64,000 nt of DNA. Origin: an uncultured Acidimicrobiales bacterium (lineage in GTDB: Bacteria; Actinomycetota; Acidimicrobiia; Acidimicrobiales; VFJN01). Within the stretch, counting starts at the first letter, position 1; every line of letters begins with the position of its first letter. The stretch spans positions 23,861 through 87,860 of the forward strand of contig CAVTKV010000013.1 in the NCBI GenBank assembly GCA_963735395.1, given 5' to 3'. Shown here one piece after another: positions 7,558-64,000 of this stretch. The position numbers were made by a program, and so were the translations under genes. The notes beneath the pieces are model-generated. The model was not told where the DNA came from and made no database searches. It saw only the letters and a list, made by a program, of their open reading frames with translations.

Positions 7558-7998
7558 TCAACGGTGAGGCGACGTGTCGAGGGACCGCGCGGTAACGATC
7601 CAGGCGCGTGAGTCAAAGAGCACGCCGTCGCTGGTGTGGTGGGCTGCGAGGCTGGCTCGCAGTCGGTCGAGCGCCCTCTCAGCGGTGGCGACGTCAAGGG
7701 TGGCGAGGAGGTCGCTGGTGTGCCGCAAGCGACGTACGGCGTCGAAGGCCGCGTCGCAGTTCTCGCCGTAGTACACGAGTTCCTCCACGGCGGCGTCGTC
7801 GCCGCTTCCGCGGCCCGGCCATCGCTGCCTGACGCGAGCGTGCGGAGAAGCGCACCGATCGACCGCTTTGGGCGCGCTCGATGACAACGCGGGTGTCCCA
7901 AACGAGCGCCCCCCACCTCGAACGTGCGGAAGGGCACGAACTCGGCCCACTCGTTCCCAGAGCCGCACGATTCCCGGGTAGCGCTCGTCCTCGAGCAC
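7558..7998 (-). CDS. hypothetical protein, possibly frameshifted
   Basis: The N-terminal MLEDERYPGIVRLWERVG is protein-like, and a second frame (7392..8000) carries ...NEWAEFVPFRTFEVGG... over the same span. A C7 homopolymer run at about 7910 suggests an indel. The C-terminal part AAVEELVYYGENCDAAFDAVRRLRHTSDLLATLD... is in the first frame. Confidence 0.25.
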   Translation of the reverse strand: MLEDERYPGIVRLWERVGRVRALPHVRGGGRSFGTPALSSSAPKAVDRCASPHARVRQRWPGRGSGDDAAVEELVYYGENCDAAFDAVRRLRHTSDLLATLDVATAERALDRLRASLAAHHTSDGVLFDSRAWIVTARSLDTSPHR

Positions 7999-8050
7999 AT
8001 CGCTGCGCGTCAGGCGCGCCTCCGCGTGGCTCCGACTAGCGACGACGAGC

Positions 8051-8329
8051 TCAACCGTCCCCGAGCCCGACGGCCTCGGGCCGGTCGAGCGTGATGCGGC
8101 CGACCGCCGGGTCGTCGGCCAGCCGTAGCACGTCGCTCGGGCGGAGAGCGCAGGCCACCGCTCCCACGAGCGGCATAGCCGTTACCGCCGCGCCGCCGTC
8201 GACCCGGGCGACGGCGGCGCGGACCCGCTCTGAGTCGTGCTCGGCGCCGGGGGAGCGGACGCCCTCGACCATGATGTCGATGGGGACATCCGGCTCCGTC
8301 GCGAGCCGATCCTCGACGGTCCGGCGAAC
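8051..8329 (-). CDS. small peptidase-inhibitor-I9 (subtilisin propeptide)-like protein
   Basis: ...VPIDIMVEGV...RVRAAVARVDGGAAVTAMPLVGAVACALRPSDVLRLADDPAVGRITLDRPE resembles the I9 propeptide pattern (gg.v...y..i.gfa..l....l..L...p.V.yvE.D). It lies immediately downstream of the S8 protease gene, in a different frame. Confidence 0.45.
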   Translation of the reverse strand, partial: VRRTVEDRLATEPDVPIDIMVEGVRSPGAEHDSERVRAAVARVDGGAAVTAMPLVGAVACALRPSDVLRLADDPAVGRITLDRPEAVGLGDG

Positions 8330-8355
8330 GAGCTCTGGTAGGGGATCCGGCCTGC

Positions 8356-9633
8356 TCACATCAGCGCGCCGTAGGCGTTCACCAGGCCGTAGCCCGCCTG
8401 GTTCGGGGCGAGGGGCAGGTCCTCGCAGCTGCGCTCGAGCAGCTTGCGCACCATCCGCGGCCGGAGCGAGCCGTCCCGCTCGAGCAGCAGCGCCACCAGG
8501 CCAGCCACGTGGGGCGACGCCATCGACGTGCCCGACAGCGCAGCGAACGTGCCGCCGGGGAAGGTCGAGGTGATGATGCCGCCCGGCGCCGCCAGGTCGG
8601 GCTTCGTCAGCTCGATCGACGACGTGGGGCTGAGCCGCCCGCTGCCGGGCCCGATGCTCGAGAACCACGAGAGCTGCTTGTCCTTGTCGACCGAGCCGAC
8701 CGTGATCGCCCCGCGGGCCGCGCCGGGGTGGCGGATGTTGTGCTGCGGCGGCGTGGCCGACGCCCCCTCATTGCCCGCCGCCACCACCGCGACGACGCCG
8801 AGCCGCACGACGTTGTCGACGGCCTGGCAGAGGATGCAGTCGGCGTCGTTGCACAGCCAGCCGTGGTAGATCTCGCTCCATCCGAGGCTCAGGTTCACGA
8901 CGTCGGCGCCCCGCAGGAACGCCTGCTGGAGGCCGGCGATGACCCACGACGGCTGGGCGAAGTTCGCGGCATCGAGCACCTGCACGTTGATCAGCGAAGC
9001 GCCGGGCGCGACACCGCGGTACACGGGGTCGGAGCTGGCGATGATCCCCGCTACGTGCGTGCCGTGGTAGCCGGGGACGAAGCCGCCGCCGGTGGCGTCG
9101 AACGAGTCCTTGACCCGGCCGAACAGCGCCGGATGGGTGTCGTCGATCCCGCTGTCGGCGACGGCGACCGTGACCGTGTCGCCGGTGGCGGTGAAGCCCG
9201 GCGACGCCAGGTCGGCGACCGCGTCGGGCAGCTCGATGACCTTGACGCTCTCGCTCAAGAGCGCGACCTGCTCGCGGTGGTCGCTGACGACGACCGTGAC
9301 CTCATCACGGGCTGCGACGGCATCGATCTCGGCCTCGGTGAGCTCGGCGCGGACCGACCTCGCCAGCGGCATCAGCTCCGCCTCGCGATCGTCCAGGTCG
9401 GCGATCGCGGCCTCGACCGGACCAGCCACATCGTGTAGCTGGTCGGCCATCTCGGTCACGACCGCACCGCGGTCGCCGCTATCGCCGTCCACCTCCGGGG
9501 ACCCGTCCAGCACGAGCAGCACCGGGTGGCGCAGATCCTCGGCCGCCGGCTCTTCCGTCGCCATCGCCGCCCCGCGACGCTTGCTCTCCTCCACCCGCGC
9601 CACAAGGCGCGGCTCCATCTTGTCGGTGGTCAT
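8356..9633 (-). CDS. S8 family subtilisin-like serine protease (no signal peptide; acidic N-terminal region)
   Basis: Catalytic triad motifs VADSGID (Asp), HGTHVAGII (His) and GTSMASPHVAG (Ser). The N-terminus is acidic and lacks a signal peptide or TM segment. Confidence 0.9.
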   Translation of the reverse strand: MTTDKMEPRLVARVEESKRRGAAMATEEPAAEDLRHPVLLVLDGSPEVDGDSGDRGAVVTEMADQLHDVAGPVEAAIADLDDREAELMPLARSVRAELTEAEIDAVAARDEVTVVVSDHREQVALLSESVKVIELPDAVADLASPGFTATGDTVTVAVADSGIDDTHPALFGRVKDSFDATGGGFVPGYHGTHVAGIIASSDPVYRGVAPGASLINVQVLDAANFAQPSWVIAGLQQAFLRGADVVNLSLGWSEIYHGWLCNDADCILCQAVDNVVRLGVVAVVAAGNEGASATPPQHNIRHPGAARGAITVGSVDKDKQLSWFSSIGPGSGRLSPTSSIELTKPDLAAPGGIITSTFPGGTFAALSGTSMASPHVAGLVALLLERDGSLRPRMVRKLLERSCEDLPLAPNQAGYGLVNAYGALM

Positions 9634-9729
9634 CTCGACGCTCCTTCCATCCGTCTGCGTCGACCAGGAGAGAGCGCCGCGGCCGCCAACCAGATACGTC
9701 TGTGCGCCACCTCGCCCGATCCGCCGGCG

Positions 9730-9804
9730 CAGGCCGGCTGTCGCACGCGACCTGGCGCAGACCGGCTCTCGTGCCAGACCGACGCGGTATCAAACCGGCT
9801 GTGG
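9730..9804 (+). promoter_or_regulatory. three direct repeats of a 14-bp motif CARRCCGGCTSTSG (starts at about 9730, 9758 and 9791) in the divergent S8-protease / membrane-protein intergenic region
   Basis: caggccggctgtcg / cagaccggctctcg / caaaccggctgtgg are read directly. Spacing is about 28-33 bp. Confidence 0.4.
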
Positions 9805-9860
9805 GCGGTCTCATTGTGTGTGGACGCCGCAGCCCAGGGCGAGGACGGCGGAGGTGGCGC

Positions 9861-12164
9861 ATGTCGGACATAGGCGATCACGCCGCGGCGGCTCGGCCCC
9901 GCGGTCGAGTCTTCGGGCGCAGACCCAAGGACGACTCCAGCATCTCGAAGGACCCCCGAGCCGCGTACGACGAGACGTTCGAGATCGAGCCGGACAAGCA
10001 GTACCTGGTCCACAACCGGACGCCGAACCGCATCCGGGTCCACGACAACGACTACGGCGATCTCTGCCTGGCGCCCCTGGCGCGGCGGGAGTTCGACGGC
10101 AAGCGGCTCGCTCCCTTCGCCCGCCATCTGCGCCCGCTGCGGCAGCGGCACCAGCTGCGCGTGCGCGACTGCACCTCCACCGCCACGTCCGTCTGGTGCC
10201 GGTTCGTCGTGTGGCTCGTGGCGCTGGCCGCCCTCGTTGCCGTCGTCGTCGACGTCCTCGTGTACGGCACCCTGTGCCGGGCCGAGGCCATCGCGACGAC
10301 GTCGGTGTTCGCCGCCGTCGTTCTCGTCGTCCTGCTCCTGGCTGCACACCGCGAGCACGGACGCGTCAAGGAGGCCCGCATCGCCGACACCGAGGAAGGT
10401 GACGTCGAGTTCGGCCTCGGCGACGCCTATACCGACGGCAACGACACCGTCCGGCGGACGAAGTACATCACCATGCTGCTGGTCGTGATCGTGGTGGGGG
10501 CAGTCCTTCCGGCCATCGCCATCTTCGTCGCCACGGACGCCAAGAGCTTCCTCGTCATGGAGGGCGGCCTCCACGTGAAGCAGGGGCTGGAGAGCCGGCT
10601 GGTGTCGAGGCTCGTCCAGGTCGTCTACACCGCGGTGCTCTCGCTGTTCCCGGCGCTCATGTACTTCCAGTTCGACCGCCAGCGGGTCGGCACCATCCGG
10701 GGCGGGTGGGTCCGGGCCATCTTCCGCATGGACCCGCAGATGGAGACGATGGCCGACATCGACGCCCACTACGGCGACCGGCTGGGCGAGGCGTCGAGCT
10801 TCTCGACCGACTCCGTGCGCTTCCTGGGCGGGCGCTACTCGCCGATCATCGTGGCCACGATCCTCATCAGCCTGGGTTGGACCCTTCTCATCCTCCCCAC
10901 GAAGTCGTTCGACTTCGCCGGCTCCAACGAGCTCTCGACCGTGGCGGCCGCCGCCGATTCGGCCTCCGAGCGGGCGCAGGCGGCGGCGGGGGACGGGTCC
11001 GCGACCGACACCCAGGCCGCCGCCGCCGAGGCGGACCGGAACCGCAACGCGGCCGAGGCCATCGCCGCCGAGAGCACCGGCTCATCGACCACGTCGACGA
11101 GCCAGCCAGACCTTCCGGAGGACGTCGACCAGGCCGCCGCCGCCGCCGAGGCGGCCGCCGCGGACGCCCGAGAGTCCGAAGAGAGTGTGCAGCTCTCGTT
11201 CTTCCAGCTGCTCGACCCGACACCCAGCGCGGCCACCATGGCGTTCCTCGGCGCCTACTTCTTCGCCGTCTTCCTGGTGCTACGCGGCTACTTCCAAGGT
11301 GACCTGCGACCCAAGCTCTACAACCAGATCACGGCCCGGCTGGTGACGGTCGTCGTGCTCGCCTACCTGATCAACGTGTTGCTCAAACCCTCCGGGGTGG
11401 AGGAGAACCTATGGTGGGCCATCGCCTTCCTGGCCGGCGTGGTCCCCATCACGGTGCTGCAGGGCTTCGGCCTGCTGATGTCGTCGGTGCTCGGCGACCT
11501 TCCCGGCAAGAGGGTCGAATGGTTGCGAAAGGCGTTCGCCAAGACGTTCGCGACACCCCGGGCGCTGACCCAGATCGACGGCATCGACATCTACGAGAGC
11601 GCCCGGCTCGAGTCCGAGGGGATCAGCGACGTCCCGTCGCTGGCCAAGACTGACCTGGTGTCGATGATGGTCAACACCCGCATGCCGGTGGAGCGCCTGG
11701 TCGACTGGTCCGACCAAGCCATGCTCGTGCTGCTGGTGGACGAGGGCGAGAACGACGACACCCGGGGCGGCAAGGGCCGGAAGGTCGACGGCCAGCACCG
11801 CGAGGCGAAGCCCGATCAGTCAGCTGCGCAGCATCGGGATCCGGCGAGGCGAAGCCGGATCAGCCAGCTGCGCAGCATGGGGATCCGCACGGCCTCAAGC
11901 CTGCTGGCCGTCGCCCAGGATGCCGATCAGCAAGACCGGTGCGCCGCCGCCGCCAAGATCCTCGGCGGGGACCCGCTGCTGAGGGGACTGGCCTGCCAGA
12001 TCGAGAAGGAGCCGTCGACCCGACGCATCCAGCATTGGCGCGAGGCCGAGCTGACCGACCTGTGCATCAGGCGTCCCCTCATCAAGGCGGGCCACGACCT
12101 GCCCTCCGATCCCCGCACGGTGGCCGGCAACGGGTCGCGCAGCACACGGGTGCCTACGCCGTAG
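9861..12164 (+). CDS. large polytopic membrane protein of unknown function (about 767 aa) with a central Ala/Asp/Glu-rich low-complexity linker
   Basis: ATG at 9861 preceded by GGAGGTG. There are 8 or more hydrophobic helices, a roughly 110-aa cytoplasmic N-domain and a C-terminal soluble domain (...IDGIDIYESARLESEGISDVPSLAKTDLVSMM...). It contains an out-of-frame 44-bp tandem duplication at 11800-11887. Confidence 0.75.
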   Translation: MSDIGDHAAAARPRGRVFGRRPKDDSSISKDPRAAYDETFEIEPDKQYLVHNRTPNRIRVHDNDYGDLCLAPLARREFDGKRLAPFARHLRPLRQRHQLRVRDCTSTATSVWCRFVVWLVALAALVAVVVDVLVYGTLCRAEAIATTSVFAAVVLVVLLLAAHREHGRVKEARIADTEEGDVEFGLGDAYTDGNDTVRRTKYITMLLVVIVVGAVLPAIAIFVATDAKSFLVMEGGLHVKQGLESRLVSRLVQVVYTAVLSLFPALMYFQFDRQRVGTIRGGWVRAIFRMDPQMETMADIDAHYGDRLGEASSFSTDSVRFLGGRYSPIIVATILISLGWTLLILPTKSFDFAGSNELSTVAAAADSASERAQAAAGDGSATDTQAAAAEADRNRNAAEAIAAESTGSSTTSTSQPDLPEDVDQAAAAAEAAAADARESEESVQLSFFQLLDPTPSAATMAFLGAYFFAVFLVLRGYFQGDLRPKLYNQITARLVTVVVLAYLINVLLKPSGVEENLWWAIAFLAGVVPITVLQGFGLLMSSVLGDLPGKRVEWLRKAFAKTFATPRALTQIDGIDIYESARLESEGISDVPSLAKTDLVSMMVNTRMPVERLVDWSDQAMLVLLVDEGENDDTRGGKGRKVDGQHREAKPDQSAAQHRDPARRSRISQLRSMGIRTASSLLAVAQDADQQDRCAAAAKILGGDPLLRGLACQIEKEPSTRRIQHWREAELTDLCIRRPLIKAGHDLPSDPRTVAGNGSRSTRVPTP
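11800..11887 (+). repeat. 44-bp tandem duplication (2 copies, 41 of 44 identical) inside the 9861..12164 CDS, not a multiple of 3
   Basis: gcgaggcgaagcccgatcagtcagctgcgcagcatcgggatccg / gcgaggcgaagccggatcagccagctgcgcagcatggggatccg. The copies are translated in different frames (REAKPDQSAAQHRDP vs ARRSRISQLRSMGIR). Confidence 0.8.
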
Positions 12165-58723: not shown

Positions 58724-59881
<1,158 letters not shown>

Positions 59882-59899: not shown

Positions 59900-61781
59900 G
59901 TGGTCCGATCGCGACCGCAGCCACGTGCCCTATCTGTATCGACTGGCATGTCGGGCGCGCCACGGGAGGAGGCGAAAGGCGTGGTGATCGAACGGTTGGC
60001 CGGCGACGGTGTCGAGCCCACGGCCAGCAGATCACCGGGAGACCGCGCGGCATTCCCGCGTCGGCCCGATCAGCACGTCACACGGGTGTCCCTGCGCCAG
60101 CGGGTGTCGTTCGTGGCCCTGGCGATCGCCCGGCTCAGCTGGCTGCTGGTCCTGAGCCTGCTCGCCGCCCCTGCGCTGCTTGTCCGCAACGCCTTCGGAC
60201 CGACCACCGGGCCCCGTGTCCTGCGTTGGTACTTCGAGACCTGCGGTGGCGGCTACGTGAAGGTCGGTCAGTTGCTGGCCACCCGGTACGACCTCCTACG
60301 AGCTGACTACACCGAGGAGCTCGGCAAGCTCCTCGACTCGTTGCCGCCGGTTCCCACCGCGACGATTCGCCAGGTGGTCGAGCGTGAGCTGGGGCGACCG
60401 ATCGCCGACGTGTTCGCGCTGTTCGAGCCCCGACCGATCGCAACGGCGTCACTGGCGCAGGTGCACGGCGCCGTGCTCGCCAACGGCGACGACGTCGTCG
60501 TGAAGGTCCTCAAACCGGGGATCAACGAGCGCGTCCGCATCGACCTGGCGTTCCTGCGGGTCACCGCCCGGGTGATCGACGTCCTTCCGGTGCTCCGGGG
60601 CCTCGACGTGAGCGGGCTGATCGACGAGCTCTCCCGCACGGCCATCGAAGAGCTCGACCTCGGCCGAGAGGCCATGTACACCTCCTACCTCCACGACCAG
60701 ATGGCGGCGGACCCGATCGCCCACTACACGCCGAAGGTCTACCGCCGCCTGTGCACCCGGAACATGCTCACCCTCGAGCGCATCCGCGGCGTGACCGTGC
60801 GGGAGATGCTGACGGCGATCACCAACGGCGACGACCCCACGCTCGAGTCGTGGGCCGCACGTGGGATCACACCCGAGCGCACCGCCGTGGTCCTGCTGCG
60901 GTCCGTCCTCGAGCAGACCATGCGGCTCCGGTTGTTCAACGCCGACCCGCACCCGTCGAACCTGATCGTCAGCGACGGTGGCACGCTCAACTGGGTCGAC
61001 TTCGGCCTGGTCGGATGGATCGACGAGCGTCAGTGGGAGTTGCAGCTGCGCCTGAGGGATGCGATCACGCAGGATCGCATCCACGACGCGTACGTCGCGC
61101 TGCTCGAAGGGCATGGAGCCCCTGCCCTTCCGAGACCTCAGCGGCTTCGAGCAGGAGATCAAACAGAGCCTGCAGGACTACCTGATCGCGTCGAACGACC
61201 CGAACGCGCCGCTGAGCGAGAAGAGCACAGGGTCGTTCCTGCTCAAGACGCTGGCGACGCTGCGCCGCAACCGACTGCCCATGACCTCCAGCACCGTTCA
61301 GCTCTACCGCACGATCCTGATCGCCGACATCGTGATGCTCGGCCTATACCCGTCCATCGATTGGCGGGGTCACCTCCGCCGGTTCCTCCGGGACTTCTCC
61401 ACCGACCTCATCGAGCAGGCCGTCGTCCAACCTCTCACCTCGCCCTACACCGGATACCGGCTGGCACGGGCGCCGATGGCCGTGGCCGACACGATGGAAT
61501 GGCTGATGCGGCGCCTCCCGGACATCGGCCGCCAGACATTGCGCACGCTCTCGGCCAGCGAACGGCTCATCCCGCACGCCCTCCGGCTGCTGCGCCGGGC
61601 GGTCGGGATCTGGATCGTCGCCGTGATCGCGCTCGCCGTGATCCAGCCCGACTTCTCGCGTCGCAGCGCGCTCGGCCGATTTGCCCTTCGCATCGAGGAC
61701 AATCCCTGGCCGTATCTCGGCGCCGGCGTGCTCGCCGTCCTCCTCCTGAGCTCGTTCGTTCGGAAGATGGAGACGACGTAG
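59900..61781 (+). pseudogene. ABC1/UbiB-family atypical kinase with an N-terminal TM helix, frameshifted at a GGG run at about 61120-61130
   Basis: YVKVGQLLATRYDLLRADYTEELGKLLDSLPP, VLKPGINERVRIDLAFL, ADPHPSNLIV (catalytic loop), DFGLVG (DFG). After ...VALLEG the frame shifts, and ...MEPLPFRDLSGFEQEIKQSLQDYL...(C-terminal TM) continues to 61781. Confidence 0.7.
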
Positions 61782-61799
61782 GACCTGGCCCTGGCTGGA

Positions 61800-62198
61800 C
61801 TAGGTCTTCCGTCTGCTTCGTGCGGTGTCGGTGGGCTCGACCGCGCCGGGCGTCGACTCGCTGGCACGGAGCCGCTCGGCGACCATGTCGGCGAGGCGTT
61901 CGTAGTCGAAGTCCTCGTCGGCCGGTGTTCGTGAGCGTGCGACGAACCCGTCGGAGGCCTGGCGGACGACCGTCGCGACCTCGTCGAGCAACCGGGCATT
62001 CGCCCGAATCATGGCGGCCACTGAGCGGCCCATGAGATCGGGGAATCGGTTGGTTCCCTCCAGCTCGTTCGAGAACGCCTGAGATGCTTCGGTGAAGCCG
62101 TCCACCACACCGCGCGTGAATCGCGTCGTCAGGTCCTCGTCCGGGCTGCTCCGTGGATCCTGCTTGCCGCCACGGTTCTCCTCTTGACCTTGGTCCAT
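61800..62198 (-). CDS. hypothetical protein
   Basis: 132 aa, lower GC. ...DGFTEASQAFSNELEGTNRFPDLMGRSVAAMIRANARLLDEVATVV.... Family not recognised. Confidence 0.5.
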   Translation of the reverse strand: MDQGQEENRGGKQDPRSSPDEDLTTRFTRGVVDGFTEASQAFSNELEGTNRFPDLMGRSVAAMIRANARLLDEVATVVRQASDGFVARSRTPADEDFDYERLADMVAERLRASESTPGAVEPTDTARSRRKT

Positions 62199-62397
62199 GC
62201 CCAGGCATTCTGAGCAATCCGCCGCGGGCAGGCATCGTCCATTGCGGGTGATCTACGGCGGGTCCACCGCGACCACGTCGCGCAGGGTCCCTGGTGGAAC
62301 CCGTGGCGGCCCCTCGAACCGGTGAGAGTCGCTGGGGTAGCCAGGTGCTACGGTTCGTGCCGTCTCCAACGCGCTGCGCGGGAGCGGGAGGCGAGCA

Positions 62398-63519
62398 ATG
62401 CACTCTGCTGTGAGCACCTTTGCTGGTCAGCTCCGTCACTTCGCGAGGTCGGTGGACATAGTCGACGACGCGACGTTCGACCAGTTCCGGCGGCTGATCT
62501 ACCGCTACGTCAAGAACGAGCTCGACGCCGCGTACTTCGAGCTCTTGCGCGAGCAGGCGATGGATCACGACGCGGCGCTCAAGATGTTCTGGAGCAGCGA
62601 AGACCGTGACCACAACTGGCCCGTGTGCCGGGCCGACGGCACCTATAGCAACGTCATCGCGCTGGCCTTCGGCGAGCAGAAGCCGCTCTGGATAGTCGGC
62701 CAGGACCACGAGCGGCTCGACCGCGCGGCCGGCCTCGAAGACCAGTGGTCCCACAACGCCGATCTTCCCGGCTACGAGCCGTCGGCTGACCAGGCGATCC
62801 GCACGCTGATCGTGCTCCCGCTGCGGCGGCGGCGGATCTTGGGCGTCTGCTACTTCGAGTGCTCGTCGTACCTCGGCATCACCGACGTGGCCACGACCGA
62901 GCTGCAGCTTCTGGCCGACGCCATCGCCATTCTGCTCGAGCTCTACGAGGCGAACCGGACCCAGTCCTCCTTGACGTCGTCGGCGATCACCGAGCTTCAG
63001 GAGCGGCTGGAGAAGGCCAAGTTCCCCCGGTTGACGAGGCCGCACTTCTTCGTGGCCTTCTCGACGCGGGCCGACGAGCAGGTGGTCAACGTCATCAAAG
63101 AGGTCCTGCACCGTCTCGCCGACAGGCTCGAGTTCACCGACTGGTCGCTCATCGATGAGGCAGGCAACATCAACACGCAGATCGCCCGCGAGATCACCCG
63201 GTCGCGCTTCGGCATCTGTTACCTGTCGGAGCCGGCCAAGAACTCCACGGACCCAGCCGTCGCCTACGAGGACAACCCGAACGTCGTGTTCGAAGCCGGC
63301 ATGCTCCACGGCAAGTCCGTCGCCAACGACACCGACGATGGCGGCGAGCCCACCGGGTGGATCCCGGTGCGCGAAGCCTCGTCACCCCCTGCCCCGTTCG
63401 ACTTCGCGACGGAGCGGATCCTCATCGTCCCCCGCGAACCGGACGACCACAGCCTGAACGAGTACCGGCTGGGCCAGTCGCTCAACAGCGCGATCCTGAA
63501 ACTGCTGCGCGAGGAGTGA
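62398..63519 (+). CDS. two-domain protein: N-terminal GAF-like domain plus C-terminal TIR-like / nucleoside-2-deoxyribosyltransferase-like (flavodoxin-fold, 'FEAG' glutamate) domain
   Basis: N-terminus: ...PVCRADGTYSNVIALAFGEQKPLWIVGQDHER...IRTLIVLPLRRRRILGVCYFECSSYLGITDV... (GAF-like). C-terminus: PHFFVAFSTRADEQVVNVIKEVLHRL...SRFGICYLSE...YEDNPNVVFEAGMLHGKSV...IPV (TIR_2/COG4271-like or NDT-like). GC lower than flanks. RBS GGGAGG. Confidence 0.7.
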   Translation: MHSAVSTFAGQLRHFARSVDIVDDATFDQFRRLIYRYVKNELDAAYFELLREQAMDHDAALKMFWSSEDRDHNWPVCRADGTYSNVIALAFGEQKPLWIVGQDHERLDRAAGLEDQWSHNADLPGYEPSADQAIRTLIVLPLRRRRILGVCYFECSSYLGITDVATTELQLLADAIAILLELYEANRTQSSLTSSAITELQERLEKAKFPRLTRPHFFVAFSTRADEQVVNVIKEVLHRLADRLEFTDWSLIDEAGNINTQIAREITRSRFGICYLSEPAKNSTDPAVAYEDNPNVVFEAGMLHGKSVANDTDDGGEPTGWIPVREASSPPAPFDFATERILIVPREPDDHSLNEYRLGQSLNSAILKLLREE

Positions 63520-63598
63520 GCCCGCCCGATCCGGCCGTGCGGTCGGCTCGTGGCGCCGATCGGGGGGCAGCTGCTCGCGTCGGAGGGCAAGATGGAGC

Positions 63599-63985
63599 AT
63601 GGTCGACGATGCGAGGCAAGCCCGTCACATCGTGGAGAGGTACTGGGACGCTGCGGAGGCCCGCGACTGGGCCACCTTCGGTGCCCTGCTGGCCGATGAT
63701 GTCGTCTACGAGGCCCCGCAAACGCGCGAGCGAGTGCGCGGTAAGGCAGCGTATGTCCGGTTCAACGCCGAGTATCCGGGCAATTGGCACCTGAGCATCG
63801 AGAGGGCAGTGGGTGACGAGCGCCACGCCGCCACCTGGATCACGTTCGACAACCAGGGCTCGATCGAGACAGGCCTCTGCTTCTTCGAGCTCGGCAACGA
63901 CGGGTTGATCAGACGCATCACCGACTTCTGGCCCGAGCCTTACGAACCGCCTTCGGGCCGCGATCACCTTGTCGAACGGTGGTAG
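63599..63985 (+). CDS. nuclear-transport-factor-2-like (SnoaL/DUF4440-type) protein
   Basis: ...IVERYWDAAEARDWATFGALLADDVVYEAPQTRERVRGKAAYVRFN...ATWITF is the typical NTF2-like pattern. Confidence 0.75.
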   Translation: MVDDARQARHIVERYWDAAEARDWATFGALLADDVVYEAPQTRERVRGKAAYVRFNAEYPGNWHLSIERAVGDERHAATWITFDNQGSIETGLCFFELGNDGLIRRITDFWPEPYEPPSGRDHLVERW

Positions 63986-64000
63986 GGCCGACAACAGCAG

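Follow-up and report, generated by a model that had tools for sequence, protein, structure and literature searches.

The GAF-helix-TIR gene and its chromosomal setting

The window, that is, the whole 64,000-nucleotide stretch of DNA from an uncultured Acidimicrobiales bacterium analysed here, carries close to its 3′ end an ORF with an ATG start and a TGA stop that encodes a protein of 373 aa (62398..63519, plus strand; sequence and ORF list). The GC fraction at codon positions 1, 2 and 3 of this ORF is 0.63, 0.42 and 0.91, and these values together with the homologue set demonstrate that it is a true coding gene and not a chance ORF. A search of a word-indexed protein database gave 308 homologues, which are mostly full-length (~372 aa) and nearly all labelled hypothetical; one source names a relative plainly "TIR domain-containing protein". 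The N-terminus of the homologues corresponds to the same start as that of the query, and the full-length homologues are 48–96% identical to it, the closest at 96%. An exact look-up of the 373-aa protein found no identical protein on record. The gene (hereafter the GAF-TIR gene), the parts of its product and the two adjoining genes are as follows:

61800-62198, minus strand: 132-aa ORF, divergent from the GAF-TIR gene, without a Pfam, PADLOC or NCBIfam match
62386..62391, plus strand: Shine-Dalgarno sequence GGGAGG, read in the sequence, with a spacer of 6 nt to the ATG
62398..63519, plus strand: complete GAF-helix-TIR gene, 373 aa and stop (ORF list, codon-position GC, full-length homologues, AF2 model)
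62398..62877, plus strand: N-terminal GAF-fold sensor domain, residues 1-160 (AF2 fold, conserved residues)
62884..63015, plus strand: connecting helix, residues 163-206 (44 residues), a putative dimeric coiled coil or signalling helix (AF2 model, periodicity)
63022..63033, plus strand: FPRL junction, the boundary between sensor cassette and effector (similarity to proteins P0123 and P0177 ends here)
63040..63516, plus strand: C-terminal TIR-like effector domain of the Cap12/PycTIR type, residues 215-373 (Pfam PF10137, Foldseek)
63271..63303, plus strand: active-site motif DNPNVVFEAGM, residues 292-302, with the putative catalytic E299 at codon 63292-63294
63358..63405, plus strand: WIPxRE (321-326) and PFDF (333-336) segment after strand beta-D, with W321, R325, E326, P333, F334 and D335 invariant
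63599-63985: 128-aa SnoaL-like gene, 80 nt downstream of the GAF-TIR gene (ORF list and Pfam)

The sequence-only reading had quoted three motifs from the product, and all are present, HFFVAFS at residues 216-222, DNPNVVFEAGMLHGKSV at 292-308 and WIPV at 321-324. It had also described the flanking genes as small and unrelated, which agrees with the 132-aa ORF without a Pfam match on one side and the 128-aa SnoaL-like gene on the other. The 132-aa ORF also adjoins the GAF-TIR gene in L040, a metagenomic relative, and not in the other loci. The promoter scan gave no promoter-like site for the GAF-TIR gene, and the single match of the terminator scan falls within the gene, antisense to it, at chance level. 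The Rfam scan of 61000-64000 returned no match, implying that there is no recognisable riboswitch or leader in this region. The NCBIfam scan yielded noise only.

The GC content of the GAF-TIR gene is 65.3%, compared with a window mean of 70.5%, and is the second lowest among 37 putative genes (z = -1.8); the gene thus has a lower GC content than its surroundings, as had been claimed, by a modest amount. The deficit is confined to codon positions 1 and 2 (z = -1.7 and -2.3), where the gene departs from the window, and GC3 ranks 32 of 37 (z = +1.0) at 91.2%, against a window average of 86.9%. Low GC at these two positions combined with high GC3 indicates that the low GC content reflects amino-acid composition and not foreign codon usage. 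Since the codon usage is host-like, GC provides no evidence for recent horizontal transfer of the gene, and the horizontal acquisition that had been tentatively suggested is not upheld by it. With a GC3 that exceeds the window mean, recent transfer is ruled out as an inference from GC.

The Pfam scan of ORFs showed that the wider neighbourhood is that of an ordinary actinomycete chromosome, with an AAA_16-LuxR regulator, WhiB, TetR, a glyoxalase, an epimerase, an acetyl-CoA hydrolase/transferase, a GNAT acetyltransferase, a GAF histidine kinase and an ABC1 kinase. The gene order of the window is kept in L040, whose GAF-TIR protein is 96% identical, and an Actinokineospora MAG (L014) contains a GAF-TIR fragment 95% identical to the query. 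The intergenic segment just upstream of the gene (62260-62338) is polymorphic relative to L040 (1731-2125), in which ~316 extra bases include a 93-aa minus-strand ORF with a HemolysinCabind match that is absent from the window. Further upstream, 2.5 kb from the gene, lies a canonical GAF-HisKA_3-HATPase sensor kinase (58733-59881, plus strand; GAF_2 E 2e-18), whose GAF domain has no sequence kinship to the GAF-like domain of the GAF-TIR protein. The ABC1/UbiB-like kinase gene (59900-61781, plus strand) falls into two frames (59900.. and 61059..61781) with a frameshift at 61109-61111, where the window reads GGG and L040 (a contig 94% identical) reads GG with an unbroken frame of 415 aa; the split points either to a pseudogene or to an error of sequencing or assembly in the homopolymer.

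Sensor domain, connecting helix and TIR domain

The AF2 model of the GAF-TIR protein, built from an alignment with 59 homologues, has a mean pLDDT of 85.3 and consists of an alpha/beta domain (8-155), a single long helix (163-206) and a second alpha/beta domain (216-369). Foldseek comparison of the AlphaFold models gave a GAF fold for the N-terminal domain and a TIR fold for the C-terminal domain, neither being an unrelated fold, and we regard the GAF-helix-TIR architecture as nearly certain. The N-terminal domain has the six-stranded antiparallel sheet with flanking helices of the GAF fold. None of the Pfam GAF, GAF_2 and GAF_3 models reached its gathering threshold on the query, the matches being sub-threshold only (GAF_2, 20.5 bits against a cut-off of 28.6, limited to residues 127-181), and GAF models reach E <= 0.01 in 12 of 59 family members. 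The earlier description of the N-terminus as GAF-like therefore stands for the fold of residues 1-160, but not at the Pfam threshold. Conserved residues of the sensor domain are D20, FWSS 64-67, W98, L107, D115, W117, T136, P141 and G149; W98, L107, D115 and W117, with the conserved P124, fall between the second and fifth strands, the region that forms the GAF pocket. The domain probably binds a small molecule, which would be the trigger. The structural matches include a GAF-fold enzyme, free methionine-R-sulfoxide reductase; this identity was rejected because the N-terminal domain has no Cys that is conserved across phyla.

Hydrophobic periodicity of the connecting helix peaks at 3.5 residues, and the helix contains two series of conserved core positions spaced by 7 residues (L172, L179, N186, T193 and L200; L182, Q189 and A196). 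In other GAF-regulated enzymes such a pattern marks a parallel coiled-coil signalling helix, and the protein probably forms a parallel dimeric coiled coil through residues 163-206.

The sequence-only reading had assigned the C-terminal domain to a type shared by TIR and nucleoside deoxyribosyltransferase (NDT) proteins. PF10137, the CAP12/PycTIR-type TIR model, scores 24.7 bits on the query against a gathering cut-off of 24.7, a borderline match; at E <= 0.01 the model is found in 57 of 59 family members (best 2.6e-8), and TIR_2 matches eight relatives among the 59 scanned. When a separate model of residues 207-373 (pLDDT 80.7) was used as the Foldseek query, the top two matches were SfSTING/Cap12 (7un8_A, E 4.9e-5) and TIR-STING (9lmq_D, 1.2e-4), followed by the TIRs of MyD88, AbTir, SARM1 and SPARTA. 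The domain thus has the TIR (flavodoxin-like) fold and is closest to Cap12. Searches of the PDB by sequence (phmmer, full-length profile and C-domain profile) gave nothing significant; the only non-ribosomal matches of the C-domain profile are the Brucella TcpB/BtpA TIRs, at a weak and merely suggestive E of ~0.7-0.8.

One alternative is that the C-terminal domain is a nucleotide N-glycosidase of the NDT/MilB/DNPH1 type, regulated by the GAF domain and either hydrolysing or transferring the base of a (deoxy)nucleoside monophosphate, for pool control or nucleotide-depleting defence. The structure paper on SfSTING sets its TIR beside SrMilB, both as TIR-like proteins of common fold (PMC9402430). 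No NDT-type Pfam model matches the query or any of its 59 relatives, the first-strand motif is TIR-like, and DNPH1 and NDT rank below the TIRs in Foldseek, appearing only at E >= 5e-3. The TIR half of the earlier assignment is thus supported and the NDT half is not, and we consider an NDT-type enzyme quite improbable.

The conserved Glu that had been noted in an FEAG context is E299, which is invariant in 39 sequences from several phyla, along with D292, N293, N295, V296, F298, A300, G301 and M302. The other residues invariant in these sequences are P215, F218, W249, G256, G272 and S277 and those of the WIPxRE and PFDF segment, so that the residues invariant across phyla are almost all in the C-terminal domain. 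Such clustering of invariant residues points to a conserved active site. A non-catalytic module for nucleotide binding or scaffolding is conceivable in principle, many bacterial TIR-like domains being uncharacterised, but the Glu-centred invariant block at residues 292-335 is typical of a conserved active site and makes such a module highly improbable.

In the AF2 models, E299 is located in the helix after the third strand, which is the alpha-C position. The NAD+ pocket of SfSTING comprises F6, S10, W33, F37, L47, R78 and N80, with the catalytic E84 in alpha-C, and D110 from the partner TIR completes the active site (PMC9402430). F218, S222, N295 and E299 of the GAF-TIR protein are spaced like F6, S10, N80 and E84 of SfSTING, N295-x3-E299 corresponding to N80-x3-E84, and F218, N295 and E299 are invariant in the 39 sequences. 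Judged by motif spacing and secondary structure, these four positions may be equivalent to the SfSTING pocket residues. E326 lies 27 residues after E299, and D110 of SfSTING lies 26 after E84, a spacing by which E326 might be the counterpart of D110. A glycohydrolase activity dependent on E299 is predicted and appears likely.

Family distribution, neighbourhoods and effector swapping

A search built on two peptide patterns across 185,579 genomes, one representative per species, found 36 GAF-TIR loci, whose products are 30-66% identical and always full length. Their hosts are Actinomycetota, Gammaproteobacteria (several Thiodiazotropha), Nitrosomonas, Leptolyngbya, Bacteroidota, Myxococcota, Nitrospirales, Longimicrobium, Desulfobacteraceae and others. 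When 1.84 billion representatives were searched with a profile limited to the sensor domain, 430 clusters at 50% identity came out, 325 of them at E <= 1e-10. Among the best 150 of the 430 clusters, 104 proteins are 355-400 aa long, 43 are shorter and are taken to be fragments, and three are longer. The GAF-TIR family is rare, uncharacterised and of fixed architecture.

All-against-all BLAST clustering of the ORFs of 39 loci revealed no conserved partner gene, in line with the earlier suggestion of a single-gene module. Neighbourhoods were surveyed by Pfam on 125 flanking ORFs from ~36 loci, with the following raw ORF counts:

TIR_2, 5; TPR-S, 5
SLATT_1, 4; SLATT_3, 3; DUF4231, 3
nSTAND1, 2; CHAT, 2; Patatin, 2; AAA_16, 2; AAA_21, 2

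In these raw counts, the commonest flanking families are all conflict-system domains. CHAT genes adjoin the GAF-TIR gene in L003 and L017 and lie ~1.5 kb off in L024, and in L043 the gene is surrounded by TPR-S, TIR_2, MoxR ATPase and SLATT_3 genes. In L047 an ISL3 transposase adjoins it. Curated plasmid and phage collections contained no homologue by tblastn. In an Acidimicrobiaceae MAG (L016) two GAF-TIR paralogues stand in tandem (7986-9101 and 9248-10375) with a TPR-S gene near. The window and other loci, such as L001, L045 and L046, have only housekeeping neighbours, with regulators and metabolic genes.

SLATT_1 genes are immediate same-strand neighbours in L041/L042 and L020, and L010 likewise has a SLATT gene beside the GAF-TIR gene. 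A patatin-like phospholipase gene lies by the GAF-TIR gene in three distant lineages, Nitrospirales, Bacteroidota and Propionibacteriaceae (L034, 7992-12390; L035, 6901-9077; L010, 2594-9116). The gap is 57 nt in L034 and 5 nt in L035, which is operon-like, and the patatin gene is nearby in L010; in L034 and L010 it is accompanied by a gene for a large TPR-S-matching protein having a TIR-like N-terminus. The patatin genes, with or without the TPR-S/TIR-like ones, may be an optional partner system or mere defence-island neighbours.

Two of the three long outliers among the best 150 clusters carry the same sensor cassette with another effector. In P0123 (820 aa), query residues 1-213 are matched at 50% identity, the similarity ends at the FP(R/N)L junction, and beyond it lies a CHAT protease domain (PF12770, 29.9 bits). 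Its gene is intact in two independent assemblies (L049, 6001-8463; L050, 240-2702) and resides in an island with Mrr_cat, a resolvase, a transposase and two STAS genes. P0177 (496 aa) is 28% identical over query residues 7-215; its C-terminal end is a canonical TIR_2 domain (E 2.6e-12), separated from the cassette by a middle region of ~150 aa without an assigned domain. A fixed sensor with interchangeable toxic outputs is a hallmark of conflict systems, and the placing of the cassette on CHAT and TIR_2 domains supports the C-terminal position as an end-effector slot.

These observations bear on two further explanations. The first is that the TIR domain acts as a signal generator like ThsB in Thoeris, producing a cyclic ADP-ribose-type or similar nucleotide that activates separate effectors such as SLATT pores and patatin lipases. 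The same-strand SLATT genes and the patatin genes described above would fit such effectors, and the name SLATT derives from association with nucleotide-signalling enzymes (Pfam description). However, most loci, including the window, have neither a SLATT nor a patatin neighbour, neither ThsA nor a SLOG/Macro receptor recurs, and the replacement of TIR by CHAT points to an end-effector slot. PADLOC (PADLOC-DB v2.0.0, 2023) gave no match for the GAF-TIR protein and three of its neighbours, and neither an adjacent ThsA (SIR2, or Macro with SLOG) nor a match to the ThsB model was found. A signal-generating role is accordingly considered very unlikely.

The second is a physiological switch for metabolism or stress, similar to SARM1. 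Here the GAF domain would sense a metabolite or second messenger of the cell itself (cAMP or NAD+-related compounds, for instance), and the TIR domain would lower NAD+ or make a signal, leading to dormancy or development in complex bacteria. Such a switch would agree with a chromosomal gene of host-like GC3 that is syntenic in L040, with the regulators and metabolic genes around it here and in L001, L045 and L046, and with the family being common in actinomycetes, cyanobacteria and myxobacteria; the lack of a linked dedicated signal synthase would fit a global cellular signal. On the other hand, the gene occurs at only 36 loci among the 185,579 species representatives (two peptide patterns), is patchy across phyla in varying neighbourhoods whose recurrent members are conflict-system genes, is duplicated in tandem at one locus (L016), and its cassette has been swapped onto a CHAT protease within a mobile island. 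Overall, we think a purely physiological switch unlikely.

Proposed mechanism and relation to known systems

Taken as a whole, we give about an even chance to a mechanism in which the GAF-TIR protein is a ligand-gated, coiled-coil-coupled TIR NADase that works as a stand-alone conflict effector; for this we infer dimerisation, ligand gating, NAD+ as the substrate and an anti-phage role. Two chains would associate in parallel through their GAF domains and the coiled coil. Entry of a small molecule into the GAF pocket would shift the geometry of the helix, and this shift would pack the two TIRs, or TIRs of neighbouring dimers, so that a composite active site is completed, one chain supplying E299 and the other possibly E326. 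The same logic has been described for SfSTING, where ligand binding packs the TIRs together and thereby completes a composite active site (PMC9402430). At the completed site of the GAF-TIR protein the N-glycosidic bond would be cut, in NAD+ or in a nucleotide closely related to it, and the resulting depletion would arrest the cell, an outcome comparable to abortive-infection immunity. No synthase is linked to the gene, suggesting that the ligand would be either a messenger or metabolite of general use in the cell or something produced by infection. An anti-phage role by itself is put at slightly under even odds, and the protein is a plausible candidate for a single-gene immune or stress switch.

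No cyclase gene was found among the scanned ORFs of the window between 43.4 and 64 kb, and no cyclase family is among the 25 most recurrent Pfam families of the 125 flanking ORFs (~36 loci). A Pycsar- or CBASS-type effector was ruled out because no cyclase is linked in these surveys, and PADLOC gave no match. The closest known protein, Cap12/TIR-STING (SfSTING), is a CBASS effector and the founding member of PF10137. It resembles the GAF-TIR protein in being the best structural match of the isolated C-terminal domain, in belonging to PF10137, in carrying sensor and TIR on one polypeptide, and in the alpha-C position of the putative catalytic Glu with equal F/S/N/E spacing. It differs in that its sensor is a C-terminal STING domain, whereas that of the GAF-TIR protein is an N-terminal GAF domain with a long helix; moreover, the GAF-TIR gene has no linked CD-NTase or cyclase, and the family profile matches no PDB TIR significantly.

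PycTIR, TIR-SAVED and Cat1 adjoin the maker of their ligand, namely PycC, a CD-NTase and the type III CRISPR Cas10. Compared with PycTIR, TIR-SAVED (7qqk) and Cat1 CARF-TIR (9mud), the GAF-TIR protein is an orphan, and its sensor has a GAF fold in place of their cNMP-binding, SAVED and CARF domains. SARM1 (ARM-SAM-TIR) is a eukaryotic octamer assembled via its SAM domains, in which ARM senses the NMN/NAD+ ratio; it resembles the GAF-TIR protein in logic, without sequence kinship beyond the TIR fold. GAF-regulated enzymes such as PDE2/5/6, cyanobacterial CyaB2 and phytochrome-linked diguanylate cyclases differ in their output, which in the GAF-TIR protein is a TIR domain. Full-text searches of the published literature found no description of the GAF-TIR architecture. 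The type of sensor (GAF), the orphan family and the portable cassette are new, and the effector chemistry and overall logic are familiar.

A broader and more tentative proposal, which we hold to be rather less likely than the mechanism itself, is that the GAF domain and signalling helix constitute a new portable immune sensor module, which would detect a small molecule associated with infection or stress without a dedicated neighbouring synthase and directly switch on the attached killing domain. Candidate cues would be a nucleotide derived from the phage, an alarm metabolite of the host or a second messenger of global reach. For the majority of members the killing domain would be a TIR of the Cap12 type, with TIR_2 or a CHAT protease in its place in a few. 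If true, the family would be a single-protein sense-and-kill defence family with a GAF receptor, spread over at least eight bacterial phyla.

GAF-helix-output is the classical allosteric layout of phosphodiesterases and cyclases, and the GAF-TIR protein would therefore offer a tractable dimeric model for the switching of TIR active sites. Given ~430 clusters, no model in PADLOC-DB v2.0.0 and no published description found, a phenotype confirmed by experiment would mean a further, new system of defence or stress response; a housekeeping role would instead make the protein a bacterial counterpart of SARM1. Sensor-fused TIR NADases (TIR-STING, PycTIR, TIR-SAVED, Cat1 and SARM1) are a central theme of bacterial and eukaryotic immunity, and to our knowledge the ligand is made by an adjacent enzyme in every characterised bacterial member. 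The orphan GAF-TIR protein raises the questions of what is sensed and who makes the ligand, and the answer could reveal a new infection cue or link global second-messenger signalling to NAD+ depletion.
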